Part shown: positions 1 to 22,506 of the stretch, one piece after another
Layout of the letters: each line of letters begins with the position of its first letter
How positions within the stretch are numbered: position 1 is the first letter of the stretch
Virus record (IMG/VR): IMGVR_UViG_2698536574_000031
Strand: one strand, 5' to 3'
Source of the DNA: a virus
Lineage: Duplodnaviria > Heunggongvirae > Uroviricota > Caudoviricetes
DNA: 38,122 nt
The notes under the pieces: model-generated
What the model was told of the DNA's origin: nothing
What the model saw: the letters and a program-made list of their open reading frames with translations, nothing else
Database searches by the model: none
Position numbers and translations under genes: made by a program

Positions 1-1053
1 TTAAACTTCGTTTAACGCTTCCTGTATTCTTCGACCAATCCATTTCATGACCGGTACAGGCATTGAATTTCCAATGGCCTTATAACGATGAGCTGGAGAT
101 GAATTTTTCCATGGAATATCTGTATATCCATCGGGAAAACCTTGTAGCCTCTCGCATTCGGTTGGCGTCAACCTACGAACCCTTGAATATGGTGCTCTTT
201 CAACTATGAGCCCACCAGACATAGTCATGTCCTGGTTAGTTGTTCCGTTATAGCCAGCTATTACTGTGCCTGTTCGTTTTGGCAATGCTTCAAGGCAATA
301 TCGGTGCAATTTTCCTTCAATGCCTTGATCAAGAAGGGATTCGGATTTTTTCTTCTTTCCATAATAGTTTTTATCGCCCTGCGACACAGGCGGGAACTCA
401 AATAATACCTTTCCGGGATCGAGCCTTTTTCCAGCACTTGCCACAACAAACACTCTTCTGCGAGCCTGGGCGACTCCGAAATATTGGGCATCAAGTACTC
501 GCCAGGCGACGATACGCGATGGTCCAGACACAACACCAGCGTTTGCCCATCTTTTCCTTGCTGGCTGTAATGCGCAACCTGCTCCGGCCAGCGCACCAAG
601 AAAATGACCGAATGCATTGTCATGGCTACTTAAAACTCCTGTGACGTTTTCCCATACGATTATTGAGGGGGATTTATTGAGCGATGCCCGAACGGTATCT
701 ATCTGATTCGCCAGTTCAACAAAAGACAGTGTTAACTGCCCCCGTGGATCTGAAAGGCCTTTTCGTTTGCCTGACATACTGAATGCCTGACACGGAGTTC
801 CACCTACAAGAATATCTGGTGCTTCAATAAGCCCATCCCTGATACGAGGCGCAAGCAAAGCCATATCACCAAGATTTGGTATATGGGGCCAGCGATATGA
901 AAGAAGTGTTGACGGGAAGTCCTCTATTTCACTGAACCATCTGGCTTTCCAGCCAAGATTGCTCCAGGCTACTGTCGCAGCTTCAATACCACTGCATACT
1001 GAACCATAGGTTAGTGACTTATCAGACTGAAAGTAATGTTTCTTGTTCCCCAC
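1..1053 (-). CDS. DNA (cytosine-5)-methyltransferase, Dcm-like; complete, GTG start lying inside the 3' end of the upstream com-like ORF
   Basis: Translation carries C5-MTase motifs in canonical order: SVCSGIEA (motif I), GGTPCQAFSMSG (motif IV, PCQ), ENV (motif VI), QARRRVFVV (motif VIII), AIGNSMPVPV (motif X). Stop codon is at window positions 1..3. Confidence 0.85.
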   Translation of the reverse strand: MGNKKHYFQSDKSLTYGSVCSGIEAATVAWSNLGWKARWFSEIEDFPSTLLSYRWPHIPNLGDMALLAPRIRDGLIEAPDILVGGTPCQAFSMSGKRKGLSDPRGQLTLSFVELANQIDTVRASLNKSPSIIVWENVTGVLSSHDNAFGHFLGALAGAGCALQPARKRWANAGVVSGPSRIVAWRVLDAQYFGVAQARRRVFVVASAGKRLDPGKVLFEFPPVSQGDKNYYGKKKKSESLLDQGIEGKLHRYCLEALPKRTGTVIAGYNGTTNQDMTMSGGLIVERAPYSRVRRLTPTECERLQGFPDGYTDIPWKNSSPAHRYKAIGNSMPVPVMKWIGRRIQEALNEV

Positions 1054-1207
1054 GGCAGGATTTCCTTGTGTATGTGGGGTGCTCTGTGGCGCTCTGAGAT
1101 GTGATTTGATTGAGGGTTTTACAGCGCGGACATTTTACTTCCAGATAACTGAAACTGGCCCGTGCCAGTAGCTTATTGCAGTGTCGGCACCGTATGTTTC
1201 GATACAT
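1022..1207 (-). CDS. com: Com-like zinc-finger protein (putative translational activator of the downstream methyltransferase)
   Basis: 61-aa product MYRNIRCRHCNKLLARASFSYLEVKCPRCKTLNQ... has the CxxC...CPRC arrangement and size of phage Mu Com. Start taken at the internal ATG (1205..1207) preceded by GGAGG; ORF track extends to 1252. Its 3' end overlaps the MTase start by about 10 codons. Confidence 0.6.
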   Translation of the reverse strand: MYRNIRCRHCNKLLARASFSYLEVKCPRCKTLNQITSQSATEHPTYTRKSCRGEQETLLSV

Positions 1208-1407
1208 GGCCGCATAACCTCCTGCTTTGTTGTTGATGCCTTTCTCATGCAATCGATCGACAAAAACGATCGATTCGATTTGTTTAATTGATACAACAAA
1301 TAGATTTAAAAGTCATCAACAATGATTCAGGACGGTGATTATTTACTTAAAGAAAACGAAGAGTTAGGTGGTGAAAACGATCATAAAATGATCATTTTAT
1401 TGACTTT

Positions 1408-2228: not shown

Positions 2229-2264
2229 TCCCGCCAGCCATATCATGACCGGCGGGATTTTTTT
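2229..2264 (+). terminator. hairpin plus T7 tract oriented for the + strand, abutting the esterase stop codon
   Basis: Stem TCCCGCC / GGCGGGA with 15-nt loop followed by TTTTTTT on the + strand; an A-tract precedes it on the minus strand, so it may work bidirectionally. Confidence 0.35.
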
Positions 2265-4302
2265 ATTCTGTTACCGCTTTTTTCACTTCCACCACAATGC
2301 TGTCAATCAGCACCGGGTAAGTTGCATTTTTGGTGATATCCGTTACGCGGAGTTTGTCCACCGGGAAAGTTCCTACTGGTGACTGCGTCAGGGTAAACGC
2401 GGCACCATCCTGACCATCAATAACCGGAATAACCTGAAGGCTGTTATTTCCTGCAAAACGGAAGGCCAGCGTATGCCATTCATTATCAAATGCACCAAAG
2501 GTTCCCAGTTTCTGGTTATTTGTTGCCACTTTTGCATTGTGGTACATCACATTCAGGTCTTTTGCGTCTGTCTGGATGTAGAACGATGCCAGCAGATTAT
2601 TCCCTGCATCCCCTGTCAGGGTGACACCCTGCGGCAGAGAGGAAACCGGCCAGTAAAGCGCCATGACATACTGGTTTGCCACCAGGTCGCCAGGTACTTT
2701 AAAACGACAACTGATTAAACCACCATTTTTCAGCAGTTCAGCACCAGTACCGGCATCATGATCCAGATACCAGGATGATTTACCTGTTTCCTTGGTCAGT
2801 TTCATTGCCTTACCACCTGTGCCTCCTGCATCACTGATAATTTCAGCTTTACCGCCAGCCGGCTCCCAGCCCTGGGCTTTCAGATTTCCTTCTGACTCAC
2901 TGACACGGTAAGACAGCAGTGTTGTGGTTACTGCTTCAGTTTCTGAAGGTGATGGCACTGGTGCTTCAGTTTCAGAAGATGGAACATCGGCTTTTACTGT
3001 GGTTCGCCCTGCATGAGTCAGAACAGCCGTGGCCAGACGGTCAGAAATAATACCCCGGCGCGCCCAGGCACTGAAATGGCTGGCCCGGTCCGCAGATGTC
3101 CAGGTAGCGGCACTGTTACGCCACGTTGAGCCGTAATAACCAATGGATTCAATATCCGGGTCTTCTGCCGGATTGTTGGTGGGTACATTCACGCCATTTT
3201 CATCTGTCATTAATGGAACGAAATGAATGTTTTTATCTGTTTTGTTTTTGTAGCCGCCATAGATTGCCTGGTATGCTGGTTCATTTTTCTGTTTCCAGAA
3301 ATACGTGGTATCGCCACAAATCCACGGAACGCCAGCAGCACTGCCACCGGTACACTGTTCCGCCTGTTCAGCCAGGTCTGCGCGGAATTTTTCCACCATC
3401 GCCAGAAACAGCGCAGAATGCTCCGTCGGCTTCGCATCAATATCAAACTCGCCCTGCATCCACACCACAGCAAGCAGGCGGTTTTTCGGGTTCTTCGCCA
3501 GTGCCGCTTTTGTCCGGCTGATTAAGTCCTTATACAGCGGCTTATCCACACCCCAGCGGGCTGAGTCCTCTGAAGCACCCGTGCTGTCACTGTACGTGCC
3601 GTCAGCACCCACCGTGAATGCAGAACCACCACGGCAGCAGGGAACCAGCAGAATCCCCGCATCTGCCGGAATAAACGGCAGCAGTTTTTTGGCAATGTGA
3701 AGCCCCTGACCCACGGTGCCATATTGCCCTTTAGCCACATCCGCTTTCGGGTGATTTTTTCCACTCATATCCTGCACATCATGCAGACAGTGGTCGGCCA
3801 GAATGATGTCGTTATACTGACAGGCTTTACCTCCCGGCGTGACTGTACTGCGACGGGCTAACTGCATAATACGCGGTTCGGGGCGGTCATATGTCTCCGG
3901 CAGTGGCAGACCTTCACCGTAAGCCATACCGTTTGACTGACCAGCAAGAACCACCACGTAATACCAGGAAGGGGAGCCGGAAGCAGTTTCATTTCCTGAC
4001 GGACGGGTATGTGTTTCAGCATTATCCCAGTCTGACGGTTCAGCAGTACCGGCAACATCAGCACTTAACGGAATGACCGCACCAATACCCGCTCCGGTAA
4101 TTTCCACACTCGGATCACCGGATACTGGCCTTACCCACAGGCAATCCCGGGTATTAAAACTGATGAGACAGTCAGCAAATGTCATTCCTCCTTTTGTTTC
4201 GGCCGGAGGAAAGGGAGCCTCAAGAAATGCCGCTGTACCACCGGAAACTTTAACAGTAAAGTTTCCGGGCATTGATGATAGTTGAACCCATTTGGACGTC
4301 AT
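2263..4302 (-). CDS. SGNH-hydrolase esterase, sialate O-acetylesterase (NanS/SASA)-like, with N-terminal extension and C-terminal lectin-like domain (679 aa)
   Basis: VVLAGQSNGMAYGEG matches the GQSN block of SASA/DUF303 carbohydrate esterases; about 100-aa N-terminal region and about 200-aa C-terminal Gly/Thr-rich beta-type region; co-directional with the late genes. Confidence 0.65.
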   Translation of the reverse strand: MTSKWVQLSSMPGNFTVKVSGGTAAFLEAPFPPAETKGGMTFADCLISFNTRDCLWVRPVSGDPSVEITGAGIGAVIPLSADVAGTAEPSDWDNAETHTRPSGNETASGSPSWYYVVVLAGQSNGMAYGEGLPLPETYDRPEPRIMQLARRSTVTPGGKACQYNDIILADHCLHDVQDMSGKNHPKADVAKGQYGTVGQGLHIAKKLLPFIPADAGILLVPCCRGGSAFTVGADGTYSDSTGASEDSARWGVDKPLYKDLISRTKAALAKNPKNRLLAVVWMQGEFDIDAKPTEHSALFLAMVEKFRADLAEQAEQCTGGSAAGVPWICGDTTYFWKQKNEPAYQAIYGGYKNKTDKNIHFVPLMTDENGVNVPTNNPAEDPDIESIGYYGSTWRNSAATWTSADRASHFSAWARRGIISDRLATAVLTHAGRTTVKADVPSSETEAPVPSPSETEAVTTTLLSYRVSESEGNLKAQGWEPAGGKAEIISDAGGTGGKAMKLTKETGKSSWYLDHDAGTGAELLKNGGLISCRFKVPGDLVANQYVMALYWPVSSLPQGVTLTGDAGNNLLASFYIQTDAKDLNVMYHNAKVATNNQKLGTFGAFDNEWHTLAFRFAGNNSLQVIPVIDGQDGAAFTLTQSPVGTFPVDKLRVTDITKNATYPVLIDSIVVEVKKAVTE

Positions 4303-4401: not shown

Positions 4402-4962
4402 TTATTTTTCCGAAACGCTCGCAGGATAATAACGATAAAGGGTTGAAAGACCGATATCAAAAATAAGTGCCACCTGTCTTCGACTGACACCCCCGGCCAG
4501 TAAACGCCCGACCTGCTCGTATTGTTCCTGCGTGAGACGGCGGGGTCTGCCGCCGGTTCGTCCCCTTTCACGGGCAGCTGCAAGACCAGCCCGTGTCCGT
4601 TCGACAATTAATTCACGCTCCATTTCTGCCAGCGCACCCATTATGTGAAAAAAGAAGCGCCCCATGGGGGTTGACGTATCAATGTTGTCAGTAAGACTAC
4701 GAAAATTTATCCCCTGTTGCTGTAATTCATCTGTCAGCGCAACAAGGTGGCGCATACTGCGCCCCAGCCTGTCCAGTTTCCAGACCATCAGCGTGTCACC
4801 GGGTTTTAGTTTCTTCAGTGCCCGCTTCAGTCCCGGCCGCTGTGTCGTTTTACCACTCATTTTGTCTTCAAAAATCTGCTCACATCCTGCACATTCCAGC
4901 GCATTTCTTTGTAAACCGGTGTTCTGGTCATTTGTTGATACGCGTATATAGCCAATCAGCAT
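4402..4962 (-). CDS. gin: Gin/Hin/Cin/Pin-family serine DNA invertase
   Basis: MLIGYIRVSTNDQNTGLQ... has the catalytic Ser at position 9-10 and a C-terminal HTH (GLSTLYRY), 186 aa; lies immediately outside a gix-like site. Confidence 0.9.
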   Translation of the reverse strand: MLIGYIRVSTNDQNTGLQRNALECAGCEQIFEDKMSGKTTQRPGLKRALKKLKPGDTLMVWKLDRLGRSMRHLVALTDELQQQGINFRSLTDNIDTSTPMGRFFFHIMGALAEMERELIVERTRAGLAAARERGRTGGRPRRLTQEQYEQVGRLLAGGVSRRQVALIFDIGLSTLYRYYPASVSEK

Positions 4963-5016
4963 GTATTTACCTTCCTTAAAAAGAGGTGGAAAAGCCTTTT
5001 AAAGCAGATATACGGC

Positions 5017-5042
5017 ATCCCTGAAACCTCGGTTTACGGGAT
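5017..5042. repeat. gix-like 26-bp invertase crossover site (gin-proximal)
   Basis: ATCCCTGAAACC TC GGTTTACGGGAT; its reverse complement shares a 17-bp core TCCCGTAAACCGAGGTT and central GA dinucleotide with the site at 6443..6468. Confidence 0.7.
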
Positions 5043-5396
5043 ACGGTAAACAGGGCCGCGAATGCCCTGCCATCAAACGGTACTGCTGTTGCAGCAAGCA
5101 GGCTGGCAAATGCCCGCAGAATCAATGGTGTCGCCTTTGACGGCACGCAGGATATAGACATTACGTCAGGAATGCCGGAATCAACGGCCAATCAGCGTTA
5201 TGTTACAGGGGTAAGACTGGGAGCGCAGGCATTAAGCGGCGGACTGGAATATAATTACTCCCTGTCATCAGGAAATGTGATTACCGGTTTTAAGACTGAC
5301 GGAGACTGGGAAATGCGTGGTGGTGATGACCGTGTTTATTACAGACAGATACAATATTGTATTAATGGGCATTGGGTATCCGCTGCAAGTATTTAA
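5025..5396 (+). CDS. alternative tail-fibre C-terminal cassette (S'v-like; no own start, would fuse to the constant S N-terminus after inversion)
   Basis: Open frame from the gix site: NLGLRDTVNRAANALPSNGTAVAASRLANARRINGVAFDGTQDIDITSGMPESTANQRYVTGVRLGAQ...YYRQIQYCINGHWVSAASI, homologous to the C-terminal 126 aa of the expressed fibre. Confidence 0.6.
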   Translation, partial: NLGLRDTVNRAANALPSNGTAVAASRLANARRINGVAFDGTQDIDITSGMPESTANQRYVTGVRLGAQALSGGLEYNYSLSSGNVITGFKTDGDWEMRGGDDRVYYRQIQYCINGHWVSAASI

Positions 5397-6456
5397 TTAA
5401 CGGGGGCATAGCACACAGCAGCCAGCATCTGAAATATGCGTTATTTCAGACAAGCATTGCCTGTATATGGCGATAGTATTATTCCTGTTTTTATCATTGA
5501 TTTACATGGTGATGTTTATGCAACTGATTAATGTCAAACGATATTACCCGAAAGACAAACCCTATGGTGAGGATGTTCAGTATTTCCAGAGTGAGGACGG
5601 AAGGGATTTTTATGAATCTATCCCGCTTTTTACAAAGAAATACAAACTCTGTATTTCGCCTGTAACGGGTATTATCTGCTCTGTTGCTGAAGATGTCTCT
5701 GCTTTATATCCGGCAGGTTTTACTGTTGTTGAAGTGGACGAACTGCCGGAAGGTGTGAATATTGACGGTAACTGGCAGTTTTCTGATGGCCTGATATCAA
5801 AGGTGCCGGTAAACTGGAAGACGGTTGCTGAAAAGCGTCGCTCATCGCTGCTCCAGGAAGCCAACGAAACCGTGGATGACTGGAAAACAGAATTAAAACT
5901 GGACATGATTAGCGATGAAAATAAATTACAGCTGACGCGCTGGATGGCGTATATCCGACAGCTTAAAGAAATGCACTTTAATGATATTGCCAGTGAGGGG
6001 CATTACCAGGCGATTCCCTGGCCGGAAAAACCGGAATAATTCAGAGGGTGCATTCAGCACCCTTTTCTGTGGTTTACACTGAACTTACCGTTCTCCAGGC
6101 ATTATTAATATAAATCTGAACCGGGCGATAATAGACCCCACCGATATTGTCCGCAGACCGGGAGCCGGTTTCCTGCACGTTAATACCGGAAAGCATACAA
6201 CCGGAAGGTGCGCTGTAATTCCATGACATTTCATTGCCTCCGGGTGAATGATAGCTCTGTGCTCCAAGCTGAACATTCTGTACATACCGGCCATCTGCGG
6301 TTGACTGCGTCATTCCTGACGTGATGTTGATATCCAGCGTTCCGTCAAAAGGAACACCATTAATATTTCTTGGGGTGGCGAGTCTGTTTGCTGCCACGGC
6401 GGTTCCAGCCGATGGCAGGGCATCAGCAGCCTTATTTACCGTTTCCCGTAAACCGA
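5029..6456. other. Gin-invertible tail-fibre segment (G-segment analogue, about 1.43 kb)
   Basis: Bounded by the two inverted gix-like sites; carries two opposed tail-fibre C-terminal cassettes and one tail-fibre assembly gene; the crossover dinucleotide lies in the same codon phase (CTC, Leu) in both cassettes. Confidence 0.65.
5467..6039 (+). CDS. tail-fibre assembly chaperone (Tfa/U-like)
   Basis: 190-aa ORF inside the invertible segment, downstream of and co-directional with the silent cassette; C-terminus ...QAIPWPEKPE is typical of Tfa proteins. True start uncertain (ATGs at 5467, 5506, 5512, 5518; none with a clear SD). Confidence 0.6.
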   Translation: MAIVLFLFLSLIYMVMFMQLINVKRYYPKDKPYGEDVQYFQSEDGRDFYESIPLFTKKYKLCISPVTGIICSVAEDVSALYPAGFTVVEVDELPEGVNIDGNWQFSDGLISKVPVNWKTVAEKRRSSLLQEANETVDDWKTELKLDMISDENKLQLTRWMAYIRQLKEMHFNDIASEGHYQAIPWPEKPE

Positions 6457-6985
6457 GGTTATCGATAAAGGTTCCTTTGTCCTGGATATCCGCGCCATTC
6501 TGGTCCCTGCGCAGGTAACGGTTATCACCTTCGCTCCTGCTGTAAACATCCAGATTATTACGGGCGGTTTCCGCATTCTCCAGGTCGGCAAGGTTCTGAT
6601 CCTTCGCCAGGGCATTAACGTCAGCGGGACCAAGACTGTTTTTTGTGGCAAGCGTCCCCAGACCAAGATAACCACGGGCCAGACGCTGGGCTTCCGCACC
6701 GGCATCAGCAATTTCTTTCAGGTTGTTTTTCCGGGAAAAGGCATTCGCAGCGATAATGGCTTTAATGGACAGCGTAAGCTGGTTTAACTGCGCCTTATCC
6801 GGCTGAATACTGGCTTCAGCCAGAATATTCAGCAGTTCGGCCTGGAGAATATTCAGCCAGTCCTGACCAATCCAGCTGATACCTTTTTGTCCGTCACCTT
6901 CGGTAAACCAGGTGGTGGTATTACTCTGCGCCGGAGCCAGTTCAGGCATATTCGCCACGCCGGAATTATTATCAACATGGAACAT
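6074..6985 (-). CDS. tail fibre protein S (constant N-terminal part plus currently expressed variable C-terminal cassette)
   Basis: Start MFHVDNNSG... at an ATG overlapping the upstream stop (TAATG) with AGGAG upstream; the gix-like site lies at codon 177. Confidence 0.8.
   Translation of the reverse strand: MFHVDNNSGVANMPELAPAQSNTTTWFTEGDGQKGISWIGQDWLNILQAELLNILAEASIQPDKAQLNQLTLSIKAIIAANAFSRKNNLKEIADAGAEAQRLARGYLGLGTLATKNSLGPADVNALAKDQNLADLENAETARNNLDVYSRSEGDNRYLRRDQNGADIQDKGTFIDNLGLRETVNKAADALPSAGTAVAANRLATPRNINGVPFDGTLDINITSGMTQSTADGRYVQNVQLGAQSYHSPGGNEMSWNYSAPSGCMLSGINVQETGSRSADNIGGVYYRPVQIYINNAWRTVSSV
6443..6468. repeat. gix-like 26-bp invertase crossover site (inside the tail-fibre gene)
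   Basis: TTCCCGTAAACC GA GGTTATCGATAA, inverted relative to 5017..5042 and close to the Mu gix / Salmonella hix type. Confidence 0.7.
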
Positions 6986-21053: not shown

Positions 21054-21174
21054 ATTGCCTCCGCATAAAGGATGAATATAAAATAAACAGGCGGTCAGTG
21101 TACGCTTAACTGGTAAAGTCGGTGCCTGCCTCCGGGTGGATCATGTATGCGGGTTCGACCCCCGCCACTGACCG

Positions 21175-22506
21175 TTAATCAATATATCCTTCCAGTACCT
21201 CAAGCATTCCGCCCCGGATATCCGATTTCAGCTTATCCATATTGATAACCCGGTAAGCATTAACAATCACATCCAGTTTATCCGGCTGACGCTTCAGGCT
21301 GTACGGTGCATTAACGGCAATCTGCACACTGCCATCCTGATTTTCCACGATATACATCAGATTGTTGTGCCGTTTGTCCCACAGTACCGCTTTTGGCCTT
21401 GCCAGCATTGCCGGTAAGCGCCCGAAATCCTCCGGCGTCAGGGCGATACCGTCATTCTGATGTTTCATGCTGTCCGCATGGAGCACATTTTTACCGCTCA
21501 TCGCCAGCAGGCGGGCCGGTGGCGTTCCCGTCCGGCTTTCCACCGCCTGCGCAATGCTTTCGGTCATAAAGCCCAGCGTGCGGATATCGTTACCGCCTCG
21601 CCGGGTTTTCATGATGTTTTTTGCCCAGATGCGGAACGCCAGCTGCCGCTCCGGGCTGTTGTTCATCTCCTGAACCACCATTTCCCGCAGCGCCGGGCTT
21701 TTCACCTCGATCAGTTTACGGATCAGCGCCTGGTCTGTGCCGAACGCCGCCGAACCGGGGTTATATGACCAGCCCACATCCGGTGTCATGGTTCTGGTGC
21801 CATCTGAATATGTGGTCACCGGCATTTCTCTGACTTCCCCGGTCTGCTTATCCACGCCAACCTCAACATTGCGGGTGGAGAGATGATCCTGACCGGATGA
21901 AACGGATAACCCCATTGCATCCAGACGGGCCTGAGACAATGGCCGGACACGGCAGCGGCAGTTCCAGCCATTGGGTGGGTAGTGTGTATTCCAGAACGGA
22001 TCGTCATAGCGGAATACCAGCCCGTTAAGGGCGGAATGCGCCGGGCGGGTGCGGCTGTCCATCACCGCCACATACTGCCAGAACGGATGCGTGTCCGTGT
22101 TGTTCATCATCTGCGTGTAACGCCCGGCATTGTAAGCCACGCGGGTGTTCACGTTGTAAATCAGCGCCAGACGGCGGGGATTACCCAGCTGCACTTCTTC
22201 CGCGTTACCGGCGCTGTCCACCACAATCTGCTTTCCCCACCATCCCAGCTTTTGCAGGCGGGGGGTCAGTGTGCGGATAAATGCTTTCTGTGAAATCCCC
22301 TCATCAACAGCACGCTGCACTTCCGCCTGTAGTGTGGTCAGTACGTCCAGGCGTGCCACTTTTGCCGCCGTGAATGAACGGGCATGAACATCTGCGTTTG
22401 TTTCGAACCAGTTCCAGCTGATATGCGCCCCTTTGGCGCGGAAGTATGCCACCGCCTCTTTTGAGGGAAGGGTGGCGGCATAACCTAAATCAATCCCCTG
22501 TGCCAT
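21175..22506 (-). CDS. head morphogenesis protein (Mu F-like)
   Basis: 443 aa directly downstream of portal. Confidence 0.75.
   Translation of the reverse strand: MAQGIDLGYAATLPSKEAVAYFRAKGAHISWNWFETNADVHARSFTAAKVARLDVLTTLQAEVQRAVDEGISQKAFIRTLTPRLQKLGWWGKQIVVDSAGNAEEVQLGNPRRLALIYNVNTRVAYNAGRYTQMMNNTDTHPFWQYVAVMDSRTRPAHSALNGLVFRYDDPFWNTHYPPNGWNCRCRVRPLSQARLDAMGLSVSSGQDHLSTRNVEVGVDKQTGEVREMPVTTYSDGTRTMTPDVGWSYNPGSAAFGTDQALIRKLIEVKSPALREMVVQEMNNSPERQLAFRIWAKNIMKTRRGGNDIRTLGFMTESIAQAVESRTGTPPARLLAMSGKNVLHADSMKHQNDGIALTPEDFGRLPAMLARPKAVLWDKRHNNLMYIVENQDGSVQIAVNAPYSLKRQPDKLDVIVNAYRVINMDKLKSDIRGGMLEVLEGYID

Follow-up and report, generated by a model that had tools for sequence, protein, structure and literature searches.

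The G region of phage Mu holds S, U, U' and S' and is the model of a tail-fibre inversion switch. Gin, the Mu invertase, belongs to the same Fis-dependent serine invertase family as Cin (P1 C segment), Pin (e14 P segment), Min (p15B) and Hin (Salmonella, hix sites), all of which act at 26-bp sites. Recombination in such systems depends on the invertase, on Fis and on negative supercoiling of the DNA. Cin, Pin and Min switch the C-termini of tail fibres; Hin does not, as it flips a promoter and is encoded inside its own segment. In P1 and e14, one chaperone gene is present for each alternative fibre. The recombinational enhancer of the Gin, Hin, Cin and Pin systems consists of two Fis sites 48 bp apart in cis, located in Mu inside the 5' end of gin. 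In Shigella phage SfMu, orf49-52 are described as homologous to the Mu G region, with repeats of 34 bp on either side, and its authors saw no switch in host range (PMC4406740). For Sp18, a host-specificity region that can invert, with genes that differ from those of Mu, was noted by Asadulghani et al. (2009), and prophages of this sort have been likened to Sp18 in the CC119 paper. The literature on Sp18 and its relatives that could be read does not describe the crossover sites, the two fibre forms or a single-tfa layout.

The window, meaning the whole 38,122-nt stretch analysed here (IMG/VR record IMGVR_UViG_2698536574_000031), is an Sp18-like, Mu-like prophage of Shiga toxin-producing E. coli (STEC). 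Many O157:H7 and other STEC genomes carry Mu-like prophages that match its switch region at 98-99.9% identity; of 5,426 complete E. coli genomes, 797 match the region at least in part, and 183 plus 27 contain it in full. We put the probability at about 0.92 that this transposable prophage carries a working Gin/gix site-specific inversion switch of the Mu G-segment type. Such a switch is of a known kind and, with the Sp18 invertible region noted in 2009, essentially already known; it adds nothing new in principle to the Mu G-segment paradigm. The single-chaperone layout within the segment is the one point that merits specialist attention.

Crossover sites and reading frame

Two inverted 26-bp sites bracket the segment (Table 1), sharing a 17-nt core, TCCCGTAAACCGAGGTT, and a central GA, just as the initial annotation had described them. 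The core occurs exactly twice in the 38 kb, once on each strand; at up to 3 mismatches, 0.13 matches are expected by chance, and two matches were reached in none of 100 shuffles. On the strand shown, the centre of the right site is GA and that of the left site is TC, the reverse complement of GA, which makes the pair truly inverted. Inverted 26-bp sites with an identical core dinucleotide are also the arrangement of the Gin, Hin, Cin and Pin systems, in which two imperfect half-sites of 12 bp flank the 2-bp core of each site. The likeness to Mu gix named in the initial annotation holds against the site in the Mu record (TTATCCAAAACCTCGGTTTACAGGAA, the reference for the match counts in Table 1), and the outer half-site of the gin-side site is the more degenerate one. 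A third gix site, and with it shufflon-like multi-inversion, is ruled out by the presence of just two cores even when 3 mismatches are allowed.

Table 1 Features of the invertible region and its surroundings, in window positions
Feature	Position	Strand	Description
gin, serine DNA invertase	4402..4962	-	186 aa; outside the segment and transcribed away from it
Putative recombinational enhancer	4867..4929	-	Inside the 5' end of gin; Mu-like distance from the nearest gix
gix-like site beside gin	5017..5042		ATCCCTGAAACC-TC-GGTTTACGGGAT; Mu gix match 19/26; inverted
Invertible segment	5029..6456		1,428 bp, central dinucleotide to central dinucleotide inclusive
Variable cassette S'v	5029..5396	+	Silent now; no start codon or promoter of its own; 121 aa post-inversion
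Non-coding spacer S'v-tfa	5397..5517	+	3' ~90 nt unusually conserved
tfa (U-like tail-fibre assembly gene)	5518..6039	+	Only copy in the window; co-oriented with S'v, convergent with the expressed S
GC-rich hairpin	6043..6065		In the 34-nt gap between the convergent tfa and S stop codons
Variable cassette Sv	6074..6456	-	Fused to Sc, hence expressed; 126 aa after codon 177, plus stop
gix-like site inside fibre gene	6443..6468		TTCCCGTAAACC-GA-GGTTATCGATAA; Mu gix match 23/26
Constant part Sc of tail-fibre gene S	6457..6985	-	Codons 1-176 and the first base of codon 177

The crossover inside the fibre gene is in frame, as in Mu/P1-type segments. The central GA (6455-6456) forms bases 3 and 2 of codon 177 on the minus strand, and the frame is maintained at the second site; translation confirms the proposed codon and its phase, with inversion in silico converting a 303-aa fibre into one of 298 aa. 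The cassette lengths given earlier, 126 aa expressed and 122 aa alternative, stand for the expressed cassette only; the alternative measures 121 aa after codon 177, and the discrepancy arose because two ways of counting had been mixed. The inverted arms (5025-5203 and 6282-6460) are 75% identical over 179 nt and unalignable beyond that; the earlier estimate was about 70% similarity at the junction followed by distal divergence.

Constant part and two tips of the fibre

The fibre start at 6985 on the minus strand, which gives 303 aa, is the RefSeq start in near-identical genomes. Sc is 48% identical to residues 1-191 of Mu S and matches tail fiber protein S (PDB 5yvq, E 5e-49) and PHROG 1833 (tail fiber protein). 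Downstream of the crossover, the tip encoded by Sv is 48-55% identical to the H-fibre tips of P2-like phages and matches the short tail fiber of PDB 9cuy, and the tip encoded by S'v shares 57% identity with that of Mu S G(+) and has a domain match to 5yvq at E 7e-20. As judged from a dN/dS of 0.12 against one variant prophage, Sv is under purifying selection. In flipped genomes, the 298-aa fibre is annotated by RefSeq as an intact gene.

At their ends, both cassettes have the receptor-binding tip fold of Mu S and S', and each matches the solved Mu S/S' tip, in line with the alternative receptor-binding tips first proposed. The tips belong to the receptor-binding tip family of Mu S, S' and P2 H. 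The two cassettes share 53% protein identity and have different nearest relatives, from which an alternation of host range may be inferred.

On the practical side, Mu-like prophages are common in STEC. In routine annotation their silent cassette is wrongly labelled a pseudogene or hypothetical protein, and short-read assemblies appear to break at the crossover site.

gin and the putative enhancer

A small serine recombinase with a resolvase domain and a C-terminal HTH (Pfam Resolvase 1.4e-51, HTH_7 1.7e-14; PHROG 125, DNA invertase) lies beside the segment, as is usual for inversion systems of this type, whose invertases have Ser9/10 as nucleophile in an N-terminal catalytic domain. Over 181 aa it shares 75% identity with Mu Gin, and it contains the motifs GYIRVSTNDQ and WKLDRLGRS. 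In Mu, a consensus scan places two Fis-consensus 15-mers 48 bp apart, their centres 108 and 156 nt away from that of gix; we take these to be the Mu Fis sites. The same scan of the window finds Fis-like 15-mers at +156, with agreement at 6/7 positions, and at +108, with only 5/7. There are no indels between Mu and the window across this stretch, and the geometry equals that of Mu. An enhancer in the 5' end of gin, with activation by bound Fis, is a candidate on homology.

Inversion in natural genomes

Inversion occurs in nature, with exchange at the core. A 2.8-kb query flipped in silico is found contiguous at 99.9% identity in NZ_CP045827 and NZ_AP026099, and 27 complete E. coli genomes contain the flipped query at a coverage of 80% or more; the window orientation is present in 183. 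Over 2,801 nt, NZ_CP045827 differs from the window by 4 mismatches when flipped and by 869 when unflipped. OkiPb01678 and OkiPb01712, near-clonal bovine isolates with the same prophage insertion site, differ over 14.8 kb by 1 SNP and exactly this inversion; the inversion differences are confined to 5042-6443, with 0 extra mismatches after flipping. In both base-level comparisons, NZ_CP045827 and the OkiPb pair, the crossover is bounded to the 17-bp core. One genome carries two prophage copies whose segments are 100% identical and lie in opposite orientations, exactly between the cores.

Of 26 IMG/VR contig ends, 10 lie in the interval from -23 to +148 nt around the crossover, with ~0.8 expected, and this clustering fits mixed orientations in the sequenced cultures. 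The orientation counts are far from 1:1 (183 vs 27; 22 vs 6) and come from non-independent genomes, so neither a rate nor a bias can be read from them. A separate survey of genome contigs with the Sc query yielded a single, uninformative locus, in Pantoea persica, with a gin homologue and no exact core. The initial annotation had made its claim depend on heterogeneity in populations; both orientations are present among complete genomes, in near-clonal isolates and within one double-copy genome. With the adjacent Gin-type gene, the inverted gix-like sites and the kept frame, these flipped genomes bear out its reading of a Gin-invertible tail-fibre switch.

A single tfa and its conserved spacer

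In Mu/P1-type segments, each cassette has its own co-oriented assembly gene (S-U, S'-U'); here the lone tfa accompanies S'v. The gene product matches Pfam Caudo_TAP (E 2e-18) and PHROG 136 and shares 29-30% identity with Mu U and U'. Searching all six frames of the window with a Tfa HMM turns up this copy and no second one. All 28 Sp18-like IMG/VR loci in which tfa is detected have one copy, and complete Mu-proper loci have two. With one tfa in the segment, the two orientations are not equivalent, unlike those of Mu: in the current state tfa is oriented against the late transcript, and in the S'v orientation it follows the fibre gene within the late operon.

Among loci whose tfa coding sequences share 66% identity and whose S'v cassettes cannot be aligned, the spacer between S'v and tfa is 80-85% identical, and its last 60 nt reach 97-100% identity. 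It is long and conserved throughout the single-tfa clade, whereas Mu-clade loci have only 2-4 nt at this place. The sequence is unmatched elsewhere in phages. A sigma-70 consensus scan gives no good match in the spacer and no enrichment of promoter-like sequences in the region (7 found against 4.3 expected). The Mu C-type late-promoter box of Pmom, TTAT-N6-ATAA, occurs nowhere in the window, an absence that carries little weight. Rfam has zero matches anywhere in the window, and a structured RNA was rejected, as the AT-rich hairpin at ~5428-5450 lacks compensatory changes in relatives. A gene antisense to tfa and serving Sv was likewise rejected: the ORF at 5610-5906 on the minus strand is unconserved, shrinking from 130 to 67 open codons in diverged tfa variants.

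The GC-rich hairpin beyond the tfa stop codon is terminator-like on the plus strand in a terminator scan and stable on both strands, with folding energies of -16.5 kcal/mol (+) and -14.7 kcal/mol (-) and z-scores of -3.7 and -3.0.

The preferred reading is that a single Tfa serves both tips and that its gene would be driven by its own signals, located in the conserved spacer upstream. This is suggested by tfa being the sole Caudo_TAP gene, by the conservation of the spacer, by a variant prophage in which the same tfa (96.5% aa identity) stands beside a different S'v tip, and by P2_2H1 G, which is 71% identical to Mu U though the preceding fibre tips differ. Against it stand the lack of a convincing sigma-70 promoter upstream of tfa and the orientation of tfa against the late transcript; with equal likelihood, the spacer may control translation or be a block for recombination. 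A wider and more tentative proposal, which we hold possible but somewhat doubtful, is that the Sp18-like clade has an asymmetric cassette in which one generalist chaperone is expressed in both orientations from its own element, the hairpin acting as a two-way terminator that shields tfa from the convergent late transcript. If so, one Tfa would fold two or more interchangeable tips, and tfa expression would be uncoupled from the late operon. We know of no description of a multi-tip Tfa, or of a tfa expressed independently of the late operon, in Mu, P1 or e14. Interchangeable tips served by one Tfa would bear on the real modularity of fibre tips and chaperones, which matters for engineering the host range of phages and tailocins.

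Alternative explanations

The inversions might be ascribed to RecA-dependent recombination between the 179-nt inverted repeats that flank the segment, or to assembly error, since assemblers can mis-orient repeat-bounded segments, and not to Gin acting at gix. This is highly improbable: arms of just 75% identity are a poor RecA substrate, and in both base-level comparisons the exchange lies inside the perfect core with the gix centre. That core is too short to mislead long-read assembly, the flipped and unflipped states each recur in many complete genomes of different serotypes, and an intact invertase gene adjoins the segment in every complete locus surveyed. We give equally little credence to a frozen relic, in which sites and gin persist but recombination has been lost in this prophage. 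The window shows a single orientation, its gin-side outer half-site and proximal Fis-like site are degenerate, and SfMu was reported to show no host-range change; among possible causes its authors name a 1-bp difference in one of the repeats, which might lower or abolish inversion (PMC4406740). Against this, both orientations are found, even between near-clonal isolates, among prophages that are 98-99.9% identical to the window and have the same sites and the same Gin protein (WP_000904930.1).

The lone tfa admits two further readings. In one, the segment is an ON/OFF switch: only the Sc-S'v orientation with tfa assembles fibres, the fibre of the present state lacks its chaperone and the particles are fibre-less or non-infectious, and Sv is the relic of an Sv-U pair after loss of U. 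The co-orientation of tfa with S'v only, the want of a clear tfa promoter, and the Sv-like tips of the unrelated phages P2_2H1, vB_EcoM_TH18 and POP15, each directly followed by a Caudo_TAP gene, would fit such a switch. It is nevertheless distinctly unlikely, as Sv is intact in all loci seen and shows the purifying selection described above, and the single-tfa layout persists throughout a diverse clade in which several types of tfa and S'v occur, which argues against a recent accident. The Sv orientation is also the commoner one in lysogens, which is hard to explain if all founders had the opposite one, a point that clonal sampling weakens. In the other reading, the Sv tip folds without Tfa or borrows one from other STEC prophages, and tfa is specific to S'v. 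STEC genomes contain many lambdoid prophages, usually tfa-bearing, and Sakai has 18 prophages in all; tfa, moreover, is always beside S'v and enters the late operon only in the S'v orientation. Yet related tips elsewhere are paired with a Tfa, retention of the same tfa when S'v is swapped for a different tip speaks against tight S'v specificity, and reliance on a helper prophage would fail in a naive host, so that we regard this reading, too, as unlikely.

Proposed mechanism

In the mechanism favoured here, Gin made from just outside the segment would bind the two inverted sites, cleave each at its central GA and swap the ends, thereby inverting the 1,428 bp; Fis bound to the enhancer in the 5' end of gin would activate it. 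The constant, baseplate-proximal 176 residues would thus be joined either to Sv (303 aa, the state of the window) or to S'v (298 aa). The swap of tips would alternate the receptor, and thereby the host range, of the released phage, and one Tfa, produced from spacer signals of its own, would chaperone both tips. Catalysis by Gin, dependence on Fis and the consequence for host range are proposed from homology.

Comparison with Mu and related phages

The window belongs with Sp18, which is the Mu-like prophage in E. coli O157:H7 Sakai, and with the STEC relatives of Sp18; its right end has a C5 DNA methyltransferase at the place that Mom occupies in the nearest complete genomes. In SfMu, which is Mu-like with a G segment and gin, one fibre tip shares 60% identity with the C-terminal 73 aa of Sv. 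With Mu itself, the window shares the gene order of baseplate genes, S, invertible segment, gin and com. In addition to the Gin and Sc identities and the likeness of the silent tip to Mu S G(+), the gix sites are nearly the same, central GA included, and the crossover falls at the equivalent point of S, in the motif ...NLGL(Q/R)ETVN. The window differs from Mu in a 679-aa DUF6645/SASA gene between gin and com and in perfect repeats of 17 bp, compared with 34 bp in Mu. Its segment measures 1.43 kb against about 3 kb, and its fibres of 303 and 298 aa, compared with about 500 aa in Mu, are missing a shaft of ~200 aa. The segment has one tfa in place of U plus U' and a conserved 120-nt spacer before it where Mu has a 2-nt S-U junction.

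Layout of the invertible segment

The element is a functional Gin-type tail-fibre switch in an Sp18-like prophage, Sp18 being the Mu-like prophage of E. coli O157:H7 Sakai. The fibre gene S joins a constant part (Sc) to the expressed tip cassette (Sv), which inversion replaces with the silent alternative tip (S'v).

Features of the invertible fibre locus, in window coordinates
Feature	Position	Strand	Description
Tail-fibre gene (S), 303 aa	6074-6985	-	After baseplate genes, also -
Serine recombinase gene (gin), 186 aa	4402-4962		Beyond the inverted repeats
Fibre C-terminal cassette (S'v)	5031-5396	+	Without promoter or start codon
Tail-fibre assembly gene (tfa)	5518-6039	+	Between S and gin, with S'v
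Left site	5017-5042		ATCCCTGAAACC-TC-GGTTTACGGGAT
Right site	6443-6468		TTCCCGTAAACC-GA-GGTTATCGATAA

Both crossover sites lie where the initial annotation had placed them. Each strand of the window carries their common 17-nt core once, with no further exact copy; with up to three mismatches permitted, 0.13 chance matches are expected there. Inward from the sites, the arms are 75% identical for 179 nt before similarity is lost, matching the description of cassettes alike at the junction and divergent distally. Counted from the S start codon at 6985, the central GA forms bases 2-3 of codon 177, as had been proposed, and the other site stands in the same phase. In-silico inversion of 5029-6456 converts the 303-aa fibre into one of 298 aa. 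The former has the predicted 126 residues after the crossover codon; the latter has 121, so the earlier figure of 122 was off by one. In near-identical genomes, RefSeq places a 61-aa "hypothetical protein" at window 4976-5161 (-), antisense to the silent S'v, a call that is almost certainly spurious. Genomes in the flipped orientation have their silent Sv cassette annotated as an incomplete "phage tail protein" pseudogene.

The serine invertase outside the segment and the two inverted 26-bp sites with matching 2-bp cores fit the Gin/Hin scheme. The Mu enhancer is located in the 5' end of gin. A consensus scan of Mu gave two Fis-like 15-mers, centred 108 and 156 nt from the centre of gix (the Gin crossover site) and 48 bp apart; in the window the +156 element has 6/7 consensus positions, the +108 element only 5/7, and this stretch aligns to Mu with zero indels. 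Judged from the sequence, a Fis enhancer in the 5' end of gin is plausible. We infer from homology that Gin would catalyse the exchange, that Fis would be required and that host range would be affected. Apart from the enhancer, which is putative, and a chaperone for each cassette, which the window lacks, the sequence-level features of the family are present.

Natural inversion of the segment

The flipped sequence was made in silico and used as the query in a search of 5,426 complete E. coli genomes. NZ_CP045827 and NZ_AP026099 each contain it as a single contiguous match of 99.9% identity; the flipped orientation is present at ≥80% coverage in 27 genomes of several serotypes, and the window's orientation is present in 183. 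NZ_CP045827 shows 4 mismatches over 2,801 nt to the flipped sequence versus 869 to the unflipped one, and its junction sequences locate the exchange within the 17-bp core. In two Okinawan bovine isolates (OkiPb01678 and OkiPb01712), the prophage occupies the same chromosomal site, with 14.8 kb identical except for one SNP and the inversion. The raw differences between them are confined to 5042-6443, and 0 further mismatches remain after in-silico inversion between the central dinucleotides. Within one IMG/VR genome, two copies have flanks of 99.6-99.9% identity and segments that are 100% identical but inverted, exactly between the cores. NZ_AP045172.1 (JNEC-KY176) contains two different prophages of the clade (hits H22 and H49, 98.8% and 83.7% to the window), one in each orientation.

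Twenty-six Sp18-like IMG/VR loci are truncated, their contigs ending downstream of the fibre gene start. In ten of these 26 (L013, L022, L033, L036-L039, L041, L042 and L045), the contig ends between -23 and +148 nt from the crossover, where <1 is expected. We infer that assembly broke at these points because the sequenced DNA was mixed in orientation; the ends suggest that short-read lysogen assemblies routinely break at the crossover, both orientations being present.

Population heterogeneity at the junctions, on which the initial annotation had made its proposal depend, is thus found among complete genomes, in near-clonal isolates and between copies within one genome. Genome comparison shows the occurrence and position of the inversion, and by this evidence the switch is active in nature. 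With Gin, gix, an in-frame crossover and natural inversion all found, the reading as a Gin-invertible fibre switch is supported.

Element identity and neighbouring genes

Over the 2.8-kb region, many complete genomes of O157:H7 and other STEC carry Mu-like prophages with 98-99.9% identity to the window; in one of these genomes, the annotated surroundings make up an entire Mu-type late region (portal, protease, gpT head, sheath, tube, tape measure, baseplate, fibre, recombinase, Com and Mom). At the gin-com junction, where Mu lacks any gene, the window has a 679-aa gene (2263-4302, -), codirectional with gin and the late genes. Its product, a member of PHROG 143 (of unknown function), has a SASA domain resembling sialate O-acetylesterases at residues 116-312 and DUF6645 at its C-terminus, and might be a virion-associated or LPS/capsule-modifying esterase. 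Window 1-1252 (-) contains a com-like gene (within 1022-1252), then a C5-type DNA methyltransferase running off the window start, with PCQ and ENV motifs and a match to PHROG 116. In the closest relatives with complete genomes, a Mom-family gene occupies this position; an exchange of the anti-restriction module seems to have taken place. In two related loci (L001 36832-36912; L006 32741-32820), RefSeq lists a "tRNA-OTHER" flanked by the head-morphogenesis and virion-morphogenesis genes, corresponding to about 21130-21210 in the window; ARAGORN found no tRNA anywhere in the window, and an Rfam search gave no match.

A single tail-fibre assembly gene

Mu pairs S-U and S'-U', whereas a Tfa HMM search of the whole window returned one Caudo_TAP gene, which points the same way as the silent S'v and converges on the expressed S. 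Each of the 28 Sp18-like IMG/VR loci with a detected tfa has a single copy, its segment measuring about 1.4 kb; tfa runs antisense to S in 22, the arrangement of the window, and is co-oriented in 6. In the Mu-proper clade, complete loci contain two tfa genes within about 3 kb. The single tfa is a property of the clade and no accident of the window copy. Across the Sp18-like clade (L007 2289-2588; L014-L049), at least three spacer types lie upstream of tfa, which itself falls into at least two groups by sequence, sharing about 96-100% and about 60-64% aa identity with the window Tfa; gin has two variants (98-100% and 80-81% identity), and S'v comprises several unrelated tips. In the one Sv pair compared, Sv is seemingly more conserved than S'v, so of the two cassettes S'v seems the more readily exchanged.

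The Sv fibre may be independent of the tfa chaperone; Sv-related tips in three unrelated phages each directly precede a Caudo_TAP gene, so Sv is expected to need one. Alternatively, the inversion may be an ON/OFF switch, giving assembled fibres in the S'v orientation alone. We favour one generalist Tfa, independently expressed. This reading is favoured because a variant prophage has the same tfa (96.5% aa identity) beside a different S'v tip, and P2_2H1 G and Mu U are 71% identical although their preceding tips differ. It is also favoured because Sv is under purifying selection (dN/dS 0.12) and its orientation is commoner than the flipped one among lysogens, in counts that are confounded by clonality.

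The same reading is favoured by the long conserved spacer before tfa and by a hairpin that is stable on either strand and lies in the 34 nt separating the convergent tfa and S stop codons. The spacer is 50-125 nt and AT-rich in single-tfa loci, against 2-4 nt in Mu-clade loci; the window's type is 80-85% identical, and 97-100% over its last 60 nt, in loci whose tfa coding sequences share only 66% identity and whose S'v cannot be aligned. Against a generalist, self-expressed Tfa stands the search for a tfa promoter, which gave no convincing one, and the spacer might instead govern translation or mark a recombination block. The non-coding stretch 5431-5519 (+), just upstream of tfa, is 83-100% conserved, above the flanking genes, across loci with different S'v tips and with tfa variants only 66% identical; it may act as a promoter or in translation control, or be a recombination block.

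Comparison with known systems

The switch was already known, since Asadulghani et al. describe an invertible host-specificity region in Sp18 with genes distinct from Mu, and programmed inversions in Mu-like fibre genes have been systematically surveyed and confirmed by long reads (PMC9881135). None of the literature examined was found to describe the crossover sites of the Sp18-like switch, its two products or its single-tfa layout. That layout is a modest novelty on a known theme, and the point worth experiment is the expression of tfa, and the need for it, in the current orientation.

In direct comparison with the Mu record, Gin is 75% identical and the constant part of S 48% identical, with the crossover at the equivalent point. 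The Mu gix, TTATCCAAAACCTCGGTTTACAGGAA, agrees with the site in S at 23/26 positions and with the gin-side site at 19/26, sharing the GA centre, in keeping with the initial annotation. Each variable cassette finishes in a tip domain of ~70 residues whose structure is known from Mu S and S' (PDB 5yvq, 8ju3). The silent S'v lies near the Mu S G(+) tip, with 57% identity and a domain E of 7e-20, and the expressed Sv is closer to PDB 9cuy, a "short tail fiber", and to the tips of H fibres in P2-like phages, at 48-55% identity to the latter. In conclusion, the switch operates like the Mu G segment.
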